Assembly (NCBI GenBank): GCA_018396995.1
Contig: JAGTQB010000005.1
Location: 15,198 to 79,197, forward strand
Source: Candidatus Bathyarchaeota archaeon
GTDB lineage: Archaea > Thermoproteota > Bathyarchaeia > Bathyarchaeales > DTEX01
Length of the DNA stretch: 64,000 nt
Direction: 5' to 3'
Positions 9,253 to 51,034 of this stretch are shown here, one piece after another. Made by a program: the position numbers and the translations under genes. Below the pieces are notes generated by a model. That model was given only the letters and a program-made list of their open reading frames with translations, was not told the DNA's origin and did no database searches. Numbering within the stretch: the stretch's first letter is position 1; every line of letters begins with the position of its first letter.

Positions 9253-9420
9253 ATCTCAAAAGCCGTGGAGGCGGGTGGAGAATCTACTTATCATCTAAAA
9301 TAAGTATCAATATGCCCGCAGAATGCGTAGAGAATCTCAAAAGGTTGAGAATTAGATGTTATGCTGGGAACCGTAAGGTATATAGGGGGAAACTGATTCT
9401 TCTAAGGTTTAATGGTGAAA

Positions 9421-9451
9421 CTGATTTCCCTGAGAATGAGGTTGATGATGT
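9421..9451 (+). promoter_or_regulatory. Box D / box C-like (K-turn or K-loop) cluster in the L7Ae leader
   Basis: CUGA (9421-9424), CUGA (9430-9433), AUGAGG (9436-9441) and UGAUGA (9443-9448) lie immediately 5' of the L7Ae ATG at 9452. Confidence 0.3.
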
Positions 9452-9826
9452 ATGCCCAAACCATTTTATGTTAAGTTTGAGGTTCCGCCCGAGTTGGCTA
9501 ATGCGGCATATGAAGCAATATCAGTAGCTCATAGGACTGGGAAGGTTAAAAGGGGAACTAATGAGACAACGAAGGCTGTCGAGAGGGGGCTTGCTAAACT
9601 AGTGGTGATAGCCGAGGATGTTGACCCGCCTGAAGTCGTGGCCCATCTACCGCTACTATGCGATGAACGTAAGGTTCCATACGTCTACGTCCCCAGCAAG
9701 GCTAAGCTCGGCTCAGCAGCTGGCATAGAGGTTGCAGCGGCATCCGCATGCATAATTGATCCAGGCCAAGCGGCGGACCTAGTAAAGGAGATTATAGAGA
9801 AGGTTCAGAAGATTAGGGGTGGTTAA
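9452..9826 (+). CDS. rpl7ae: 50S ribosomal protein L7Ae (K-turn binding protein)
   Basis: 124 aa with [12 protein letters not shown]...[21 protein letters not shown], the canonical L7Ae pattern. Confidence 0.95.
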
Positions 9827-10788: not shown

Positions 10789-11093
10789 CCCCCGCCACCC
10801 CCAACTGGTGGTAGAATGGCGACCTCGTCTCCATCCTTAAGCCTATACGCCATGCTGCATGAAATTCCATTAACGTATATTTGATAGTTGCTTCTCACCA
10901 CGATCCCTTCACGGCCCCTGTCCTCAGCCTGAAACATCGTCCTCATCCACTTGCCAGCTATATTTCCATGCCTGCTAGGTATATGTTTCATGAGGAGATC
11001 CTCCAATGTGGAGTCCCCTACCTCATACTCCTCCTCCCTAACACCCATGAGCTCACGTATCCTTCCAAAATACTTAACTCTAACCCTAACCAT
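10785..11093 (-). CDS. moaD: MoaD/ThiS-family ubiquitin-like sulfur carrier
   Basis: 102 aa with beta-grasp-like VRVKYFGRIRE...DGDEVAILPPVGGGGG and a glycine C-terminus, translationally coupled to moaE. Confidence 0.7.
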   Translation of the reverse strand: MVRVRVKYFGRIRELMGVREEEYEVGDSTLEDLLMKHIPSRHGNIAGKWMRTMFQAEDRGREGIVVRSNYQIYVNGISCSMAYRLKDGDEVAILPPVGGGGG

Positions 11094-17147: not shown

Positions 17148-17214
17148 GGGATCAGGGATCAGCCAGCCTGTCATCCAATTAGGGCTGTCCACGCTTTCGA
17201 CCCTCATCATCCCC
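17148..17214 (-). ncRNA. Box C/D sRNA candidate
   Basis: Minus strand: GGGG-AUGAUGA(C)-GGGUCGAAAGCG(12 nt)-UGGA(D')-10 nt-UGGAUGA(C')-15 nt-CUGA(D)-UCCC. A 4-bp terminal stem is present. D' is degenerate and the second spacer is long. Confidence 0.45.
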
Positions 17215-17302: not shown

Positions 17303-19072
17303 TCAGCGCTGCATACGTGAGCCAGCACCCTCATACCACGCTCTCCTTATAGTCTTGGGTCTCAGATCCGTTATGTCGGCCAGAGCTTCTAAGAGTATCT
17401 CGGTTTTAGCAAGCTTTGGTTCAGGAAGCCTGTTCCCATAATTATCGTAGCCTACATAGACCACGCATGGCTTTATCTCATATAGCCAGTCTATGAGCTC
17501 CATATCAAAGTCCAATATGGGCTCTATTACAACCACCTTCCACCTCCAATTAAGCCTGCGCATAGCCTCATAGCGCTCCCTTGGCGGCGGAGCCCTGCTT
17601 AACCCATAATCTCTGTTGGTCTCAATGGTCGCTCCCAGGACAACATTGCCGCTGAACTCATCTATAAATTCAAGGTATCTAGCAGGGTTCTTCGTTAAGA
17701 ATAGGAAGCGGGCTCTTGGCTTAGAGCGGACAACCCTCAATACGCCCTCAATCCAATCCCTCGGAACCCAAGAATTACCGCACCAAACCGGCTTACCATT
17801 TCTTCTAACATAAATTATGTGAGTGGGCACCTCGAGGCAATAGACATAACCTCTATAATCTTCATAGCCGACATAGCATCTAGTTTTAATGCCCAGCTTA
17901 TTAGTAGCCCCTATATTGCGGGCTTGGCCGACTTCAGGCATCTTATTTCTCCTACTAATTGTGACCTCATAGTGGTCGCGCCCTCTTGCCACAATCTCTC
18001 CGCCAATATTTTTATCCCGTTTTCTACCTCTCTTTCTCACTATAGATGCATATCCGCATTTCAACGCCACTTCCTGAATATCGTCGGCGAGCCTCTTGCT
18101 GGTCGTATAGGCTCTTTTACAGTTTCCTGATGACCTATTACCGTCGCCATTAATATAGGCTTCAAGCATTATATTTAGTAATCTTTTCGACAGGTTTTTC
18201 AATTCAGGGGGAATATGCTTTTCGTCTCCATGACCCAGCTTTTGAAGATATTCTATGAGCTCCCGATCTCCATAAATTGTGATCCCATCTCCGTAAGCAC
18301 AAAAGTTTTTTCCTCTACTTTCAGCGACCGCTTTTATTGTCTCAAGGGCATCTTTATATTGGGGGCTTGTGTTCTTTTTGGCAACCTTTATTCGCATCTC
18401 ATTATTTATTATCAAGACTTCATCCTCGGCTAGATAATACCCGAGGAATTTCATAAAAATGTCTACTGGTACACCCGCAATCTCATCTACCTCATAACCC
18501 TCCCAGTTTGGAAAGTCACTTCGAAACTTTATTCTCTTCCCAAGGCAGCTCTCAGCTCTGACTAAACTAAAGTCTCCAAAATTTACACCCCGCCCCCCAC
18601 GCGATGTGGTTCTCACCGCAACATAGAGGTTGTGGTCTGGAGTAACTAATAAATCTACAAAATTCGACTTTACTCTAACCATCTTTCCCTCATACCAGTA
18701 TTTTACGATTCTTGTGGGCTTACAGTAAATAACTCTATTATTGTTTGGGTCTAAGCAAGCTACCAGGTCATCATAAGTGACTTCATTAAATTTCTTCCAT
18801 CCATTATAAGTCAATACTTCAGTCTCCTCATCATAACAACCCCACATATCACCCATATCCGAGACAAATATAAACCCTTTATCCGGGAGCCTTTGCCTAA
18901 GCCTCTCAGCCACAAATGTTGGGTTAAAGCCATGCGACCTATAGGGTTCAATGCCTCTCGAGGCTAATCTAGCAGCATATTTTCTAGACCAACAGTAGAC
19001 GCAGTTATGTAGGCAGCCAACTATTGGGTTCCACGAGTAAGTTATCTCTCCAGGCGGGCCCTCATGAACCAA
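17303..19072 (-). CDS. Gp37/Gp68-family (DUF5131, COG4422) radical-SAM-like protein, intein-containing precursor
   Basis: The N-extein has WNPIVGCLHNCVYCW (CX3CX2C) and ...FVSDMGDMWG. The C-extein resumes SWVPRDWIEGVL...FLFLTKNP. The joined exteins total 234 aa, a length I recall as normal for this family. Confidence 0.85.
   Translation of the reverse strand: MVHEGPPGEITYSWNPIVGCLHNCVYCWSRKYAARLASRGIEPYRSHGFNPTFVAERLRQRLPDKGFIFVSDMGDMWGCYDEETEVLTYNGWKKFNEVTYDDLVACLDPNNNRVIYCKPTRIVKYWYEGKMVRVKSNFVDLLVTPDHNLYVAVRTTSRGGRGVNFGDFSLVRAESCLGKRIKFRSDFPNWEGYEVDEIAGVPVDIFMKFLGYYLAEDEVLIINNEMRIKVAKKNTSPQYKDALETIKAVAESRGKNFCAYGDGITIYGDRELIEYLQKLGHGDEKHIPPELKNLSKRLLNIMLEAYINGDGNRSSGNCKRAYTTSKRLADDIQEVALKCGYASIVRKRGRKRDKNIGGEIVARGRDHYEVTISRRNKMPEVGQARNIGATNKLGIKTRCYVGYEDYRGYVYCLEVPTHIIYVRRNGKPVWCGNSWVPRDWIEGVLRVVRSKPRARFLFLTKNPARYLEFIDEFSGNVVLGATIETNRDYGLSRAPPPRERYEAMRRLNWRWKVVVIEPILDFDMELIDWLYEIKPCVVYVGYDNYGNRLPEPKLAKTEILLEALADITDLRPKTIRRAWYEGAGSRMQR
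17774..18838 (-). mobile_element. Intein (355 aa) with a LAGLIDADG homing-endonuclease domain
   Basis: Block A is CYDEETEVLT (Cys1 codon at 18838-18836) and block B is LLVTPDHNLYV. The LAGLIDADG motifs are FLGYYLAEDE and LEAYINGDGN. The C-terminal end is PVWCGN followed by the +1 Ser (codon at 17773-17771). Confidence 0.85.
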
Positions 19073-19154
19073 TTTTTCAGAAGCACCTATTTCTCATTAA
19101 AGCAACTAAAAATTTAATATTCTCTATGGAATATAATTGTACTGATTTTCCTTT

Positions 19155-19218
19155 GGCGATGAGGTTGCCTCCTCTCAACTGACGTGTTTTGAATGAGGAG
19201 CTCACGCAGCGCTGAGCC
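19155..19218 (+). ncRNA. Box C/D sRNA candidate (variant AUGAGGN boxes)
   Basis: GGCG-AUGAGGU(C)-13 nt-CUGA(D')-10 nt-AUGAGGA(C')-12 nt-CUGA(D)-GCC. The spacing is canonical, and the boxes differ from RUGAUGA at one position. Confidence 0.5.
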
Positions 19219-19241
19219 GTAAGCAATGTGAAGGAGGTTTT

Positions 19242-19314
19242 GGCTCATCGGGTTCGTGGGTTCCTCATCCCTTTCTGGTGGTCAGCGCCGGGAGTAAATA
19301 TTCCCTTCATCGCC
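19242..19314 (-). ncRNA. Possible box C/D sRNA, convergent with the 19155 sRNA
   Basis: Minus strand: GGCG-AUGAAGG-18 nt-CUGA-13 nt-AUGAGGA-13 nt-AUGA-GCC. It shares the GGCGAUGA 5' end and the AUGAGGA C' box with its neighbours, but box D is non-canonical and the first spacer is long. Confidence 0.3.
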
Positions 19315-19355
19315 TAAGAAAATTATTCACAAAACTATTGATAAATGTTAGTCTC

Positions 19356-19429
19356 ATAGACACCTTACTTCAGAAAAAGGAATTCTCATCATCACATCAG
19401 AGTCGCTCCATTTCATCACGCCAGTCTAT
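19356..19429 (-). ncRNA. Box C/D sRNA (canonical)
   Basis: Minus strand: AUAGAC-UGGC-GUGAUGA(C)-AAUGGAGCGACU(12)-CUGA(D')-UGUG-AUGAUGA(C')-GAAUUCCUUUUU(12)-CUGA(D)-AGUAAGGU-GUCUAU. All four boxes are canonical, both spacers are 12 nt, and there is a 6-bp outer stem. Confidence 0.75.
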
Positions 19430-19584
19430 TTTATGTTAAACCATGCTTATAAATTCTTGCCTGGGGTCCCAGTTTATAGTCGGGTTCTCCAACTAGGGTC
19501 AAAGAATAAATTTTTGAATGGAGAGATCTAACTAATGCTGAAGAAACGGTAGTCTCATATAAGACCATACGCTAATTTTATTAT

Positions 19585-19655
19585 GGTGGCGGGCGATGTG
19601 GAAGTGGTCCTCCACCGAGCTCATGAGGACTATCTAATCAACTGAGCCCGCCACC
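19585..19655 (+). ncRNA. Box C/D sRNA candidate with a 10-bp GC-rich terminal helix
   Basis: GGUGGCGGGC-G-AUGUGGA(C)-AGUGGUCCUCCA(12)-CCGA(D')-GCUC-AUGAGGA(C')-CUAUCUAAUCAA(12)-CUGA(D)-GCCCGCCACC. Both spacers are exactly 12 nt. The C and D' boxes are degenerate. Confidence 0.55.
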
Positions 19656-19723
19656 AAGTCTTCTAAAATTTTTATGTGAGCTTTTTATCTAGTATCCGCT
19701 TATAGTATGTTAGGTGACGGGTT

Positions 19724-20617
19724 TTGAGTGGTGTTCGCTTCGGTATAAATCCGACGCCGCACCCATGGCCTGACGTTAAAAGGTTTGCTGAGTGGTGTGT
19801 GAGGGTTGAGGATTTAGGTTATGACGGTATCTTCCTCCCAGACCACTATGACCTTCCAGCACCATCCTTCCCATCAAACGAGCTCCTGGATGCTTGGACG
19901 ACACTATCATACATCTCTGCAAAAACGAGCTCCGTTAGGGTTGGGTGCATGGTGAGCCCGATACCCAGATGGATTCCAAGCCAGCTGGCAAAGATTATAG
20001 CCACAGTGGACTTTCTCTCAGAGGGTAGGGTTATAGCTGGCTTCGGAGTAGGCTTCTATCCACCAGAATTCATTAATTATTCGCCAACAGCCTCCTTTGA
20101 CGATGACCGCACCAGAATCGAGAAGTTTGAGGAGGGAATACAGGTAATCCTCAAGCTATGGACTGAGGATAATGTGAACTTTAATGGAAAATATTATAGG
20201 CTGAGTAACGCCACCCTACTGCCGAAGCCGAAGCAGAAGCCTCACCCACCAATGTGGTCTGGCGGGATGGGACCGCGGTCCCTGAAGATTACGGCAAAAT
20301 ACTTTGATGGGTGGATAGCTCATAGAGCTCCTTCACCGCATAGAGTGGTGTCCCTTGAAGATTATGAGAGCCGCGTAAAGATGGTTCGGGACCTCTTGAG
20401 GGGGTATGGTAGAGACCCAACAAAGTTTACCTTCGTCTTCCTCCTCATGATTGGGTTGGATTTGAAGGATTTAGGGGAGAGCGTCAAGTTTATTGAGGAT
20501 CACGCGAGGGCTGGTTGCCAATACTTTATTGTTGAGTTCACGCCGCCCCCGCCGCCACAAAAATATATGGAGCTGAGCGAGAGGTTCGCGAGAGAAGTTA
20601 TTCCAAGCTTCACATAA
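19724..20617 (+). CDS. Luciferase-like (LLM class) flavin/F420-dependent oxidoreductase
   Basis: FGINPTP...LGYDGIFLPDHY, GRVIAGFGVG and KPHPPMWSGG match the LLM family pattern. It is a paralog of 60564-61430. Confidence 0.8.
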   Translation: MSGVRFGINPTPHPWPDVKRFAEWCVRVEDLGYDGIFLPDHYDLPAPSFPSNELLDAWTTLSYISAKTSSVRVGCMVSPIPRWIPSQLAKIIATVDFLSEGRVIAGFGVGFYPPEFINYSPTASFDDDRTRIEKFEEGIQVILKLWTEDNVNFNGKYYRLSNATLLPKPKQKPHPPMWSGGMGPRSLKITAKYFDGWIAHRAPSPHRVVSLEDYESRVKMVRDLLRGYGRDPTKFTFVFLLMIGLDLKDLGESVKFIEDHARAGCQYFIVEFTPPPPPQKYMELSERFAREVIPSFT

Positions 20618-48581: not shown

Positions 48582-49064
48582 CTAAACCATCTTGGGCACC
48601 CAGTATATTATCATGAAGTTTACAGCTATCGCAAACATTATTGAGAAGATCCACATTGCAACTCTCTTCATATAAATCTTCTTTGAGCCTAGGCTTTCAG
48701 GCATCACATATAGGGTTCCACTAAGTGATAGTATTGCTGAGAGGGTTATTGATGCGAGGAGGTAGCTGCTTATGCTTGGGTCAAAGGCAAGCCTAGATCC
48801 TAGAAGGGTTAAAGCTATGTAAGCTATGAATGAGCCGATTAATGCATATAAGAGTCCCTCGATTCCCTCCCTGCTGAGAACTGACATTATTACGAAAAAT
48901 AGCACTATTGATATGCATAATGCTGCGGAGATAATCCCCTCCTCCTCCGGAATAAGGTGGCTGAATGAACAAACTACGATAGTTATAAGTAGGAGGAGGA
49001 GCGAGATTAACCCCTGAATCATGAATATTTTTTCCTCACCCAGTCTCTTCATTAAATCCTTCAT
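48582..49064 (-). CDS. Membrane protein (about 5 TM), function unknown
   Basis: 160 aa and highly hydrophobic, with no motif I recognise. Confidence 0.45.
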   Translation of the reverse strand: MKDLMKRLGEEKIFMIQGLISLLLLLITIVVCSFSHLIPEEEGIISAALCISIVLFFVIMSVLSREGIEGLLYALIGSFIAYIALTLLGSRLAFDPSISSYLLASITLSAILSLSGTLYVMPESLGSKKIYMKRVAMWIFSIMFAIAVNFMIIYWVPKMV

Positions 49065-49290
49065 ACTCTCATTTTCATAGTGGGCCTAAACATTTATACC
49101 TTTTCATTATCACGTGTAACCAGCTGAAATATGGTGGAAACCTTACCTCCTTAGATCTATGGTAAAGAGACTTACTTCTGACCTGAATGTAAGGGTTCTC
49201 TTAATCCCTCTTGCAAAGCCTTTATTGCATAAGGCTTAAATGTTTTTGACGCATCTATGTCTTATAGATAAAGAAAATATGGTGAATTAG

Positions 49291-49515
49291 ATGCCAAAGT
49301 CTATTGTTAAGGTCTCCCAGAAGATTGGAGAGGGGAGAGGGGAAGAGGGCGCTAAATATATTAGTGTTAAAATACCGAAGGAGCTCATGGATGAGGTTGA
49401 TAGAATAGTCTCAGCTGGGGTTCTTGGGTATAAAAGTAGAATGGAGTTCATAAAGGATGCCGTGAGAGATAAAGTTTTGAGGCTTAAGGCTGAGATAAGC
49501 GATGAGAAGAGGTGA
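49291..49515 (+). CDS. Ribbon-helix-helix (CopG/Arc/MetJ-type) protein
   Basis: YISVKIPKELMDEVDRIV...YKSRMEFIKDAVRDKV follows the beta-alpha-alpha RHH pattern. Confidence 0.6.
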   Translation: MPKSIVKVSQKIGEGRGEEGAKYISVKIPKELMDEVDRIVSAGVLGYKSRMEFIKDAVRDKVLRLKAEISDEKR

Positions 49516-49736
49516 TAAGCCTAGAAGCTTTTAAGGATAGTCTTTTTGAGTTTATTGAGTTTAAGTGTGAGCCGTTTGATGTAGACTTCATTTATAGGCA
49601 GTGCATTCAACTAGTAGATAAACATCAAATCTACGAGGTACTTCACTAACTTGAGCTAGAAGGTAAAATAATAAGGTTCTCAGACGGACGCTATATTACG
49701 ACTAAGATTGCCGTAAAAAGGTGGCTGAGTCGTCAC
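49512..49736 (+). pseudogene. Winged-helix-like small ORF interrupted by an in-frame TAA
   Basis: GTG 49512 overlaps the RHH stop. The translation is ...QIYEVLH*LELEGKIIRFSDGRYITTK, with the stop at 49647-49649 inside the recognition-helix/wing pattern. Confidence 0.35.
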
Positions 49737-49933
49737 TTGGTTGACGTCGAAATACCTAGAGAGAGATCGCCGCCGAGATTGAGAAAGCAATGCATCTCCT
49801 ACCAAGAGCGTGGAGGACGATAGACTCATTCATTTCGGAAGCAATAAAAGAGTATATTAAAAAGGTTCTCAATATATGGAATGAAGAGCTTCATGGGAAA
49901 ATGGAGCTAGAGGGCTGGGATAAGGCGCCATAA
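49737..49933 (+). pseudogene. Second RHH gene, frameshifted in an (AG)n tract
   Basis: TTG 49737 gives MVDVEIPRE. The frame then changes within AGAGAGAGA (49758-49766), after which it reads IAAEIEKAMHLLPRAWRTIDSFISEAIKEYIKK.... Confidence 0.4.
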
Positions 49934-50020
49934 GCCATAAAACAAGCAACTTTTCCACGTAATGCCCTTGGGATAAAGGTTAAGGGTGCCATACCCCACA
50001 TTTTAAGTGGTTGATGGGCA

Positions 50021-51034
50021 ATGAGGGCCATGGTTATCAGGAGGATAGCACCCATTGAAGAGAACCCCCTAAGCTATGAGGAAGTCCAAACCCCGGAGCC
50101 GAGGGGGAAAGAAGTTCTAATTAGGGTTCACACATGCGGGATATGTAGGACAGAGCTTGATGAAGTAGAGGGGAGACTCCAACCTAAGATGCCAGTTATA
50201 CCAGGCCACCAGGTTGTGGGTAGAGTCATTGAGACAGGGCCTAATGTTGAGAGACTTGTGGTTGGGGACCGCATCGGTGTCGCCTGGATCTATTATTCAT
50301 GTGGTGTATGCCGCTTCTGTAAGAGGGGTTTAGAGAACCTATGTGAAAAGTTTATGGGAACCGGTTGTGATGCCGATGGGGGATACGCTGAGTACATGGT
50401 TGTCGATGAGGATTACGCCTACAGGATTCCAGAGGTTTTCTCCGATGTTGAGGCCGCGCCCCTCCTCTGTGCCGGGGCAATTGGATATAGAGCGCTTAAG
50501 CTCACTGGCATGGAGGACGGGGACACAATAGGGCTCTACGGCTTCGGCTCCTCAGCCCACATAGTATTCCAGCTCATAAGGCACCTTTACCCAAACAGTA
50601 AAATTTATGTCTTTACTAGGAGGCGTGGGGATGCTCCAGGGGAGCTTGCATCTAAGATGGGTGCTGACTGGGTTGGGGAGACGGGTGATACCCCACCATC
50701 AAAATTAAACTGCGCCATAGATACTACCCCCACAGGAATGCCTGTTAAGGAGGCTTTGAGGAATCTTGAGAGGGGAGGTAGGCTTGTAATGAACCTCATA
50801 AGGAAGGAGACGCCGATAACAGATTTAGATTACATGCAGCACCTATGGTGGGAGAGGGAGATAAAATCCGTCGCAAATATAACTAGAAGGGATGTAGCCG
50901 AGTTCCTTGATATAGCGGCAAGGGTCCCAATAAAGCCTGAAATAGTAGAGTTTAGGCTTAGAGAGGCAAATGAAGCTTTAAGGATGCTTAAGTATGGGAG
51001 ATACCGGGGCAGTGGGGTTCTAATAATAAAGTGA
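50021..51034 (+). CDS. Zinc-dependent alcohol dehydrogenase (MDR family)
   Basis: CGICRTELDE, GHQVVGRV and the structural-zinc cluster CGVCRFCKRGLENLC. Confidence 0.85.
   Translation: MRAMVIRRIAPIEENPLSYEEVQTPEPRGKEVLIRVHTCGICRTELDEVEGRLQPKMPVIPGHQVVGRVIETGPNVERLVVGDRIGVAWIYYSCGVCRFCKRGLENLCEKFMGTGCDADGGYAEYMVVDEDYAYRIPEVFSDVEAAPLLCAGAIGYRALKLTGMEDGDTIGLYGFGSSAHIVFQLIRHLYPNSKIYVFTRRRGDAPGELASKMGADWVGETGDTPPSKLNCAIDTTPTGMPVKEALRNLERGGRLVMNLIRKETPITDLDYMQHLWWEREIKSVANITRRDVAEFLDIAARVPIKPEIVEFRLREANEALRMLKYGRYRGSGVLIIK

Follow-up and report, generated by a model that had tools for sequence, protein, structure and literature searches.

Between a DUF5131 gene that carries a LAGLIDADG intein (17303-19072, minus strand) and a luciferase-like oxidoreductase gene (19724-20617, plus strand), the 64-kb stretch of DNA analysed here, from an uncultured hot-spring Bathyarchaeia archaeon and called the window below, has a 651-bp intergenic gap (19073-19723) that holds four short units, c1 to c4, all of them very probably archaeal box C/D small RNA (sRNA) genes. 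A preliminary description of the window had proposed four such units, and a re-reading of the sequence finds each of them where it had been placed; a fifth, c5, absent from that description, lies 1.9 kb from the cluster and adjoins the stop codon of the DUF5131 gene on its downstream side. We hold to this reading because orthologues of c1, c2 and c4 keep boxes and guides and nothing else, the guides have complements in candidate target RNAs, paralogous units share sequence with one another, and each is preceded by a TATA-like element of its own. Proteins identical to those of the window are encoded in the metagenome-assembled genome (MAG) contigs JAWBXO010000006.1 and JAWCJB010000006.1 and in JGI sample 3300025089; assemblies GCA_038867835.1 and GCA_038853925.1 and read sets SRR21619495 and SRR27041559 also contain the organism. 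L010, L015/L016, L017 and L018 denote loci of related Bathyarchaeia MAGs.

Anatomy of the units

Unit c1 (19155-19218, plus strand) reads GGCG AUGAGGU-13 nt-CUGA-10 nt-AUGAGGA-12 nt-CUGA GCC, with a terminal stem GGC/GCC (19155-19157 and 19216-19218), a C box AUGAGGU (19159-19165), a D′ guide (19166-19178), a D′ box CUGA (19179-19182), a C′ box AUGAGGA (19193-19199), a D guide (19200-19211) and a D box CUGA (19212-19215). On the minus strand, c2 (19314-19242) reads GGCG AUGAAGG-18 nt-CUGA-13 nt-AUGAGGA-13 nt-AUGA GCC; its GGCG (19314-19311) and GCC (19244-19242) enclose a C box AUGAAGG (19310-19304), a variable extra spacer (19303-19298), the D′ guide UUACUCCCGGCG (19297-19286), a D′ box CUGA (19285-19282), a C′ box AUGAGGA (19268-19262), a D guide (19261-19249) and a D box AUGA (19248-19245). 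The canonical c3 (19366-19425, minus strand) has consensus boxes and no terminal stem, and the fully canonical minus-strand unit of the preliminary description is borne out in it as GUGAUGA-12-CUGA-UGUG-AUGAUGA-12-CUGA, boxes spanning 19419-19370 (C box GUGAUGA, 19419-19413; D′ guide, 19412-19401; D′ box CUGA, 19400-19397; C′ box AUGAUGA, 19392-19386; D guide, 19385-19374; D box CUGA, 19373-19370). The box C/D-like c4 (19585-19655, plus strand) has a 10-bp terminal stem, GGUGGCGGGC/GCCCGCCACC (19585-19594 and 19646-19655), then a G and AUGUGGA-12-CCGA-GCUC-AUGAGGA-12-CUGA (C box AUGUGGA, 19596-19602; D′ guide, 19603-19614; D′ box CCGA, 19615-19618; C′ box AUGAGGA, 19623-19629; D guide, 19630-19641; D box CUGA, 19642-19645). 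Finally, c5 (17148-17214, minus strand) reads GGGG AUGAUGA GGGUCGAAAGCG UGGA 13 nt AUGACAG GCUGGCUGAUCC CUGA UCCC, with C and D boxes that are canonical and a C′ (AUGACAG) and D′ (UGGA) that depart from the consensus.

Guide spacers of about 12 nt are found in c1 (13 and 12 nt), c3 (12 and 12) and c4 (12 and 12), so that the 12-13 nt first noted for the plus-strand units stands, but not in c2 (18 and 13), whose C-D′ spacer lies outside that range: there the 12 nt beside D′ are invariant and the 6-7 extra nucleotides vary. The preliminary description also needs correcting for c4: position 4 of its C box is U where a kink turn (K-turn) needs A, and its D′ box is CCGA. As to the terminal C/D motif, c3 has consensus boxes, c1 has the GGC/GCC stem, the bulge GAU and then G.A, A.G, G.U and G-C, and c2 shares this core, its D box being AUGA, or AAGA in relatives; c4 keeps the core G.A, with U in the window, G in L010, L015 and L017, and A in L018 at position 2b. 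The internal motif of c1 to c4 has the form of a kink loop (K-loop), namely NYGA (CAGA in L017 c2), 3-14 nt, then AUGA(G/U/A)G(A/G).

The ends shared by the variant units, GGC-GAU-GAGG / CUGA-GCC, resolve into the C-stem GGC/GCC, the bulge G-A-U, the G.A and A.G pairs, and then 3b, which is box position 5, facing 3n, which is position 2 of the D box. AUGAGGA departs from the consensus at 3b only, where U is replaced by a G that pairs as G.U or G-C with D-box position 2. These two pairs are the commonest among orthologues, rarer ones being U.U (c1 C′ of L017, AUGAUGG), A-U (c2 C′ of L018) and U-A (c2 C′ of L017, with D′ CAGA), and only A.A, which two lineages have in the C/D motif of c2, cannot pair; that 3b and 3n both change yet stay pairable fits the K-turn or K-loop prediction. 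Because all 16 3b,3n variants fold upon L7Ae binding and the natural 3b,3n pair of the U4 small nuclear RNA (snRNA) K-turn is G-C (PMC5061560), AUGAGGA is structurally precedented, and the oddities proper are the variable 2b of c4, the 18-19-nt C-D′ spacer of c2 and its AUGA or AAGA D box. The D′ guides of c1 and c4 (19166-19199 and 19603-19629 with their C′ boxes) also contain CCUCC, which matches GAGGA in the variant C′ box by complementarity, and intramolecular helices of 6-8 bp are predicted from this in both units; in L017 c1 that part of the guide is gone and the C′ box is AUGAUGG. This pairing may be a coincidence, or may link the G5 variant to guide masking.

Upstream of c1 lies ATATAA (19131-19136, plus strand; 19-24 nt upstream), invariant in all four orthologues; upstream of c2, TTTATCA (19339-19345, minus strand; 25-31 nt), the element at this spacing in relatives being TTTATGA, TTTATCA or TTATTAA; ahead of the C box of c3, TTTATAA (19447-19453, minus strand; 28-34 nt); and upstream of the c4 stem, ATATAA (19557-19562, plus strand; 23-28 nt), which across lineages reads CATATAAG or CATATATG at -23 to -30. 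A TATA-like hexamer of its own 19-34 nt upstream of each unit suggests that they have separate promoters; c5 has TTTATAG 26 nt upstream.

Chance would seldom produce such units, a relaxed four-box descriptor being expected 0.12 times per shuffled 64-kb window. With a terminal stem added, the descriptor matched only c1, c2, c4 and a c4 orthologue in about 125 kb searched on both strands, and a looser K-turn-core descriptor, applied to the whole non-coding part of the window (10.5 kb), returned only c1, c3, 17152-17210 (c5) and one doubtful site. A stretch of about 1 kb without genes (49035-50050) has a doubtful C/D-like match at 49588-49646 (minus strand), and ATGAGGA-N12-CTGA at 10924-10946 (minus strand) was set aside as a chance match within ThiS/MoaD coding sequence. 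Rfam gave no match at gathering scores across the window; in E-value mode all four units were weak archaeal C/D matches, at 14-21 bits against thresholds of 36-54, the best being c3 (snoPyro_CD, 20.9 bits, E 0.077). The covariance-model scan that had been proposed as a check thus cannot discriminate, since even canonical c3 reaches no family at its gathering score.

Conservation and history of the locus

Because other assemblies of this species are 99.8-100% identical and hence uninformative, homologues of the flanking proteins served to locate relatives, and alignments were made for each sRNA family separately, as a joint MAFFT alignment of all four units misplaced boxes. Units c1, c2 and c4 keep their order and orientation directly upstream of DUF5131 in L015/L016, L017 and L018, whose DUF5131 homologues are intein-less and show 82-87% identity; in L010 (luciferase homologue at 81% identity) synteny is lost on this side and the c4 orthologue lies upstream of a different gene, so that c4 is represented in five lineages. 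The c5 block is kept in L015, L017 and L018. The cluster was not found next to DUF5131 relatives at 73-79% identity, and c3 has no orthologue at this locus in the relatives examined.

Pairwise identity in c1, c2 and c4 is 83-100% in boxes and 79-100% in guides, and the C-stem is 100% identical in c1 and c2; internal loops, variable in length, show 28-46%, 3′ flanks 27-38% and 5′ flanks 46-74%, the top value being that of the A/T-rich flank of c2. Conservation stops on the 3′ side at the exact end of GCC or of the terminal stem, and on the 5′ side little is conserved from the TATA-like element up to GGCG. The D′ guide is 96% identical in c2 and 100% in c4 over all five lineages, where a 13-nt guide region is invariant, and the c4 D guide core UAUCUAAUCA is conserved except for one wobble-compatible C-to-U in L010. 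Three of the ten pairs in the c4 terminal stem have undergone compensatory change (U-A to C-G, C-G to U-A, G-C to U-A), with 94% of cells paired.

The preliminary description had seen the three variant units as a locally duplicated family with GGCGAUG at one end, an AUGAGGA C′ box and UGAGCC at the other, and both the orthologues and a shared C′ box and guide start agree with it. In c1 and c2 the C′ box and the first 7-8 guide nucleotides are common to both (AUGAGGA-GCCCACG in L015), as expected of paralogues, and their convergent arrangement is consistent with an old inverted duplication followed by divergence of the guides. It is this duplication that would account for their inverted repeats, including the 10-nt one first reported, GGCGATGAGG / CTTCATCGCC, which exists and is complementary at 9 of 10 positions. 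With c4, which shares the C-stem GGC/GCC, the bulge GAU and the G at box position 5, c1 and c2 are paralogues from old local duplications.

The origin of c3 would be different. It lies within a segment of about 200 bp that is missing from relatives and bounded by a direct repeat, AAAyGkTAGTCTCATA, whose left copy, AAATGTTAGTCTCATA (19343-19358), and right copy, AAACGGTAGTCTCATA (19544-19559, overlapping the c4 TATA-like element), agree at 88% over 16 nt, with a 10-nt core, TAGTCTCATA, identical in both. Relatives have one copy, overlapping the c4 TATA element; the insertion duplicated part of the c4 promoter region, and c3 is, as far as the sequence tells, a recent lineage-specific gene gain. 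No terminal inverted repeats were found in the inserted segment and no second copy in the loci examined, and a palindromic structure like that of a miniature inverted-repeat transposable element (MITE) was rejected, half-against-half alignment being no better than shuffles.

Beyond c4, the DNA differs in every lineage, which places the cluster at a synteny breakpoint: the luciferase block follows in the window, an amidohydrolase-luciferase block in L010, small open reading frames in L015, a tRNA-Leu gene in L017 and an HK97/Mu-like prophage in L018. In the last case a prophage or virus-like gene block of HK97-capsid / Mu-portal type (L018 1-9376) adjoins the c4 orthologue, and the site may be an integration hotspot.

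Predicted guide targets

By analogy with the family, the units would be transcribed and assembled into ribonucleoproteins (RNPs). L7Ae would recognise both the K-turn folded from the terminal C and D boxes and the K-loop of the internal D′ and C′ boxes, and two Nop5-fibrillarin units would join the complex; target RNA would then pair with the spacers, each about 12 nt long, that precede D′ and D, and fibrillarin would 2′-O-methylate the nucleotide paired to the fifth guide position. Since the organism's own rRNA is absent from the window, targets were judged on proxies, namely environmental archaeal rRNAs, a relative's tRNA and Escherichia coli. The 10 kb beyond the window start held ribosomal-protein operons and no tRNA or rRNA, and a search for archaeal 16S in viral contigs found none. 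Most long archaeal 23S contigs (L019-L138, e.g., L050, L072, L080, L082) have no 16S within 4-10 kb, so their rRNA genes are unlinked; L135 alone has a linked 16S-23S, and its 16S, at 1911 nt, carries an insertion.

Both guides of c2 have perfect complements among the proxies. A metagenome search with 11 of 12 nt of the D′ guide complement plus the helix-69 context matched at least 120 contigs, all 12 of those tested with Rfam being archaeal large-subunit (LSU) rRNA, and among the matches listed the full 12-mer CGCCGGGAGUAA stands at the junction of helices 68 and 69 (H68/H69) in 116 of 120 LSU contigs. The nucleotide that would be methylated is the G equivalent to E. coli G1906 in 23S rRNA, at the base of helix 69, and H68-71 is among the methylation hotspots published for archaeal guide RNAs (PMC4644070, PMC7994747). 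The c2 D guide has a 12/12 complement, GGGUUCGUGGGU, in a tRNA-Leu(CAA) gene of L017 (9182-9193), the sole perfect non-self 12-mer match of any guide outside the rRNA panel in 654 kb searched; its predicted target is the first U 3′ of the variable arm, and A or G at guide position 13, opposite U54, is wobble-compatible. A near-match of the same guide in 23S (CGGGUUGGUGGGC) was set aside for this perfect one. The tRNA gene itself (L017 9077-9214, plus strand) is of class II, apparently with two introns (after positions 32 and 38), and is missed by default ARAGORN and by the Rfam tRNA model; ARAGORN sees it only with the intron option, and calls a hand-spliced version tRNA-Leu(CAA). The perfect complement thus sits in L017, whose own c2 has lost the D guide.

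The other predicted sites are in 16S and, for one guide, 23S rRNA. The c1 D′ guide (complement UGAGAGGAGG) pairs with the 16S of the panel contig L135 through 10 Watson-Crick (WC) and 2 G.U pairs, contiguous and just 5′ of GGUGCAUGGCC in helix 34, its predicted target, and the two C-to-U changes in L015 retain G.U pairs with that site; the C-to-U in c4 D is likewise wobble-compatible with its proposed target. For c3, D′ makes nine consecutive WC pairs with archaeal 16S in helix 44 (h44), with E. coli position 1408 at their centre, and D makes nine with AAAGGAAUU in the helix 27 (h27) region; these two sites would be its targets, and both h27 and the h44 1408 site are published methylation hotspots (PMC4644070, PMC7994747), the latter already a predicted target in Sulfolobus acidocaldarius and Nanoarchaeum equitans (PMC4644070). 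The c4 D guide has a 9-bp run to archaeal 16S (GGAUUAGAUA / GAUUAGAUA) at its predicted target, the 790 loop, and c4 D′ (complement UGGAGGACCACUU) would probably address a variable 23S hairpin near E. coli 724, with only a partial match to 23S UGGAGGACC, the proxies showing UGGAGG and then the variable hairpin. Taken together, four of the ten guides make at least 9 WC pairs, position 5 included, with one archaeal 16S, against 0.30 expected (P = 0.0005); this collective WC-only test replaced per-guide shuffle tests allowing G.U, which were too permissive. Two candidates for c1 D were rejected: a 23S site, GCGUGAGCUGGGUU, upstream of the A loop, where archaeal 23S reads GGGAACGUGAGC and the scan matched two bacterial 23S genes only, and a perfect match in L022, most likely a chance one, within a variable part of an LSU that is itself divergent.

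Competing readings, known systems and neighbouring genes

Several observations weigh against four genes of this class. No unit reaches the gathering score of an Rfam C/D family, though Rfam families are guide-specific and that failure therefore does not bear on class membership; the c2 C-D′ spacer (18-19 nt) and D box (AUGA or AAGA) fall outside the rule; the sheared-A position of c4, 2b, is U, G or A, so that in four lineages out of five its terminal K-turn departs from the standard form; and in L017 the c1 D′ spacer is cut to 9 nt and c2 is without D guide and D box, which argues that parts of the family are dispensable. Target assignments all rest on proxy sequences, none on the organism's own rRNA or tRNA; single 9-bp matches are not significant in shuffles allowing G.U (17 kb of rRNA, p > 0.3); and the proxy RNAs offer no target for c1 D (complement CGCUGCGUGAGC) or for either c5 guide. 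As c5, equally conserved and canonically boxed, also lacks a target, these gaps point to the proxies more than to the RNAs. Our chief reservation concerns the function of c4 and the proxy-based targets.

For c4 one may ask whether it is, instead of a methylation guide, some other K-turn or K-loop RNA (an L7Ae-binding leader, a regulatory element or a chaperone-type antisense RNA) that owes its conservation to the stem and to an internal helix, which we consider unlikely. Its C box without the 2b adenine in four of five lineages would suit such a role, as would the unusually long, GC-rich, covarying 10-bp terminal stem, a predicted 8-bp internal helix of the D′ guide with the C′ box and D guide (minimum free energy -36 kcal/mol, z = -4.5), the same-strand gene that follows within 50-200 nt in the window, L010, L015 and L018, and the merely partial match to the proposed 23S target. 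Yet the 12-nt guide spacing and the D′-4 nt-C′ K-loop are the exact archaeal C/D layout, and L018 c4 has a standard AUGAGGA C box; the downstream genes differ in each lineage, the L017 neighbour even being on the opposite strand, so the conserved role of c4 is not tied to one mRNA. Moreover, its internal helix shows no compensatory change, and its D guide varies only at positions 1 and 12, as a guide would, its one core C-to-U being wobble-compatible with 16S. An H/ACA sRNA was rejected for c4, there being no ACA after the stem (GCCCGCCACCAAG) and any pocket lying about 25 nt from the 3′ end, against the 14-15 nt needed.

The preliminary description had also offered c1 and c2 as arms of a single hairpin-like element of about 160 nt, and their inverted repeats (ATGAGGAGCTCACG/CGTGGGTTCCTCAT, 86% complementary, besides the 10-nt one) invite that thought, but such complementarity is what oppositely oriented paralogues produce. 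The arms do not covary (c1 has GCUCACG, GCCCACG and GCUCGCG where c2 has ACCCACG, GCCCACG and GCCCACG), neither the length nor the sequence of the intervening spacer is kept, conservation ends exactly at the GCC of each, each has its own conserved TATA-like element, and the loss of the c2 3′ half in L017 left c1 unaffected; a single hairpin is thus very improbable. Less credible still, and in our estimate the least probable of these readings, is that the variant units are decaying pseudogenes or chance motifs with c3 alone functional: non-canonical boxes, sub-threshold Rfam scores and the partial guide loss in L017 could be so read, but it is the variants, not c3, that are kept across lineages whose flanking DUF5131 is at 82-87% identity, with guides at 79-100% against 27-52% for loops and most flanks, and c2 has perfect 12-mer complements in 23S rRNA and tRNA. 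We therefore retain the reading as four box C/D sRNA genes.

A further and rather speculative proposal, unlikely in our view, is that the variant units belong to a Bathyarchaeia-specific guide sub-family with U4-type K-turns (G at 3b), in which c4 has long been kept without the 2b adenine, apparently compensated by its 10-bp clamp stem, or else that c4 is mainly an rRNA-folding antisense chaperone linking the 16S 790 loop with a 23S domain II hairpin. If c4 is active, the L7Ae/Nop5 machinery of this clade would tolerate a K-turn variant not described so far.

Known archaeal box C/D sRNAs (110 Pyrobaculum families, Sulfolobus sR1-sR60, Pyrococcus snoPyro_CD) have the same size of 55-75 nt, C-D′-C′-D layout, guides of about 12 nt and K-turn plus K-loop architecture, and they likewise include dual, orphan and tRNA-targeting guides, duplication, transposition, and the H68-71, h27 and h44 hotspots (PMC6009581, PMC7994747, PMC4644070). 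The units here differ from them in lacking Rfam family membership, in the G at box position 5 of C and/or C′, in the 18-19-nt C-D′ spacer and AWGA D box of c2, and in the 10-bp stem and variable 2b of c4. Other archaea are documented to have clustered sRNA genes and duplicated paralogues, guides that are orphans or have tRNA targets (PMC6009581, PMC7994747), and K motifs of non-canonical form, these last in 3-11% of known sRNAs (PMC6009581); what this locus shows is real but ordinary in kind and leaves the understanding of the C/D system unchanged. Comparable to the c3 insertion, with its 10-16-nt direct repeat, and to the inverted duplication of c1 and c2 with diverged guides are the duplications, guide replacements and transposed sRNAs of Pyrobaculum (PMC6009581), whose MITE-like sRNA genes the c3 segment does not match in terminal inverted repeats or a second copy.

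The K-turn of the U4 snRNA 5′ stem-loop, the binding site of 15.5K/Snu13, has the sequence AAUGAGG / CCGA. It is of the same type as those of the variant units, with a 3-nt bulge ending in AU, G.A, A.G, and G-C at 3b,3n, although U4 is a spliceosomal RNA without guide function and the likeness is limited to the protein-binding motif. This class does not fold in Mg2+ alone and folds with an L7Ae-family protein (PMC5061560). The non-standard simple K-turn Kt-23 resembles c4 in that its 2b,2n step breaks the rule of tandem G.A/A.G pairs, and K-turns of its type are still bound by L7Ae (PMC2790904, PMC3985660), but the nucleotide substituted is 2n in Kt-23 and 2b (U, G or A) in c4, a case that we did not find described.

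Points of modest interest are the G5, U4-like boxes, the c4 2b position with its clamp stem, the gain of c3 and the losses in L017, the last two making the birth and decay of sRNA genes visible on a short evolutionary scale. Box C/D guides are poorly annotated in uncultured archaea, where generic models miss them (Rfam finds none of the five in the window), and a covariance model of the class could be started from the small Bathyarchaeia set at this locus, with its clade-typical variants (G5; C-stem GGC/GCC), for which the analysis collected 17 sequences. The set also makes concrete predictions of modification sites, at the base of 23S helix 69, in 16S h44, h27, helix 34 and the 790 loop, and in tRNA-Leu; in E. 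coli numbering the rRNA methylations would fall at 23S G1906 and at 16S 1408, ~909, U788 and ~1042.

The window also encodes L7Ae, the K-turn-binding core protein of C/D RNPs (9452-9826, plus strand; Pfam PF01248 on orthologous genes). The 5′ leader of this gene (9380-9455, plus strand) is conserved and has AUGGUGA-AA-CUGA, with AAUGAGGU just before the start codon; the motif is AUGAUGA-AA-CUGA in L015 and AUGAUGA-AA-CCGA in L018, and in the window and L017 a G occupies the box position that varies in c4. The leader may be an autoregulatory K-turn like those of archaeal L7Ae mRNAs. As for the DUF5131 gene (phage Gp37/Gp68-like), its LAGLIDADG-type intein is about 355 aa long (CYDEET...VWCGN|S); its closest relatives, of 222-252 aa, have none, and a further relative, P0134 (376 aa), has a mini-intein, seemingly at the same position in the gene.

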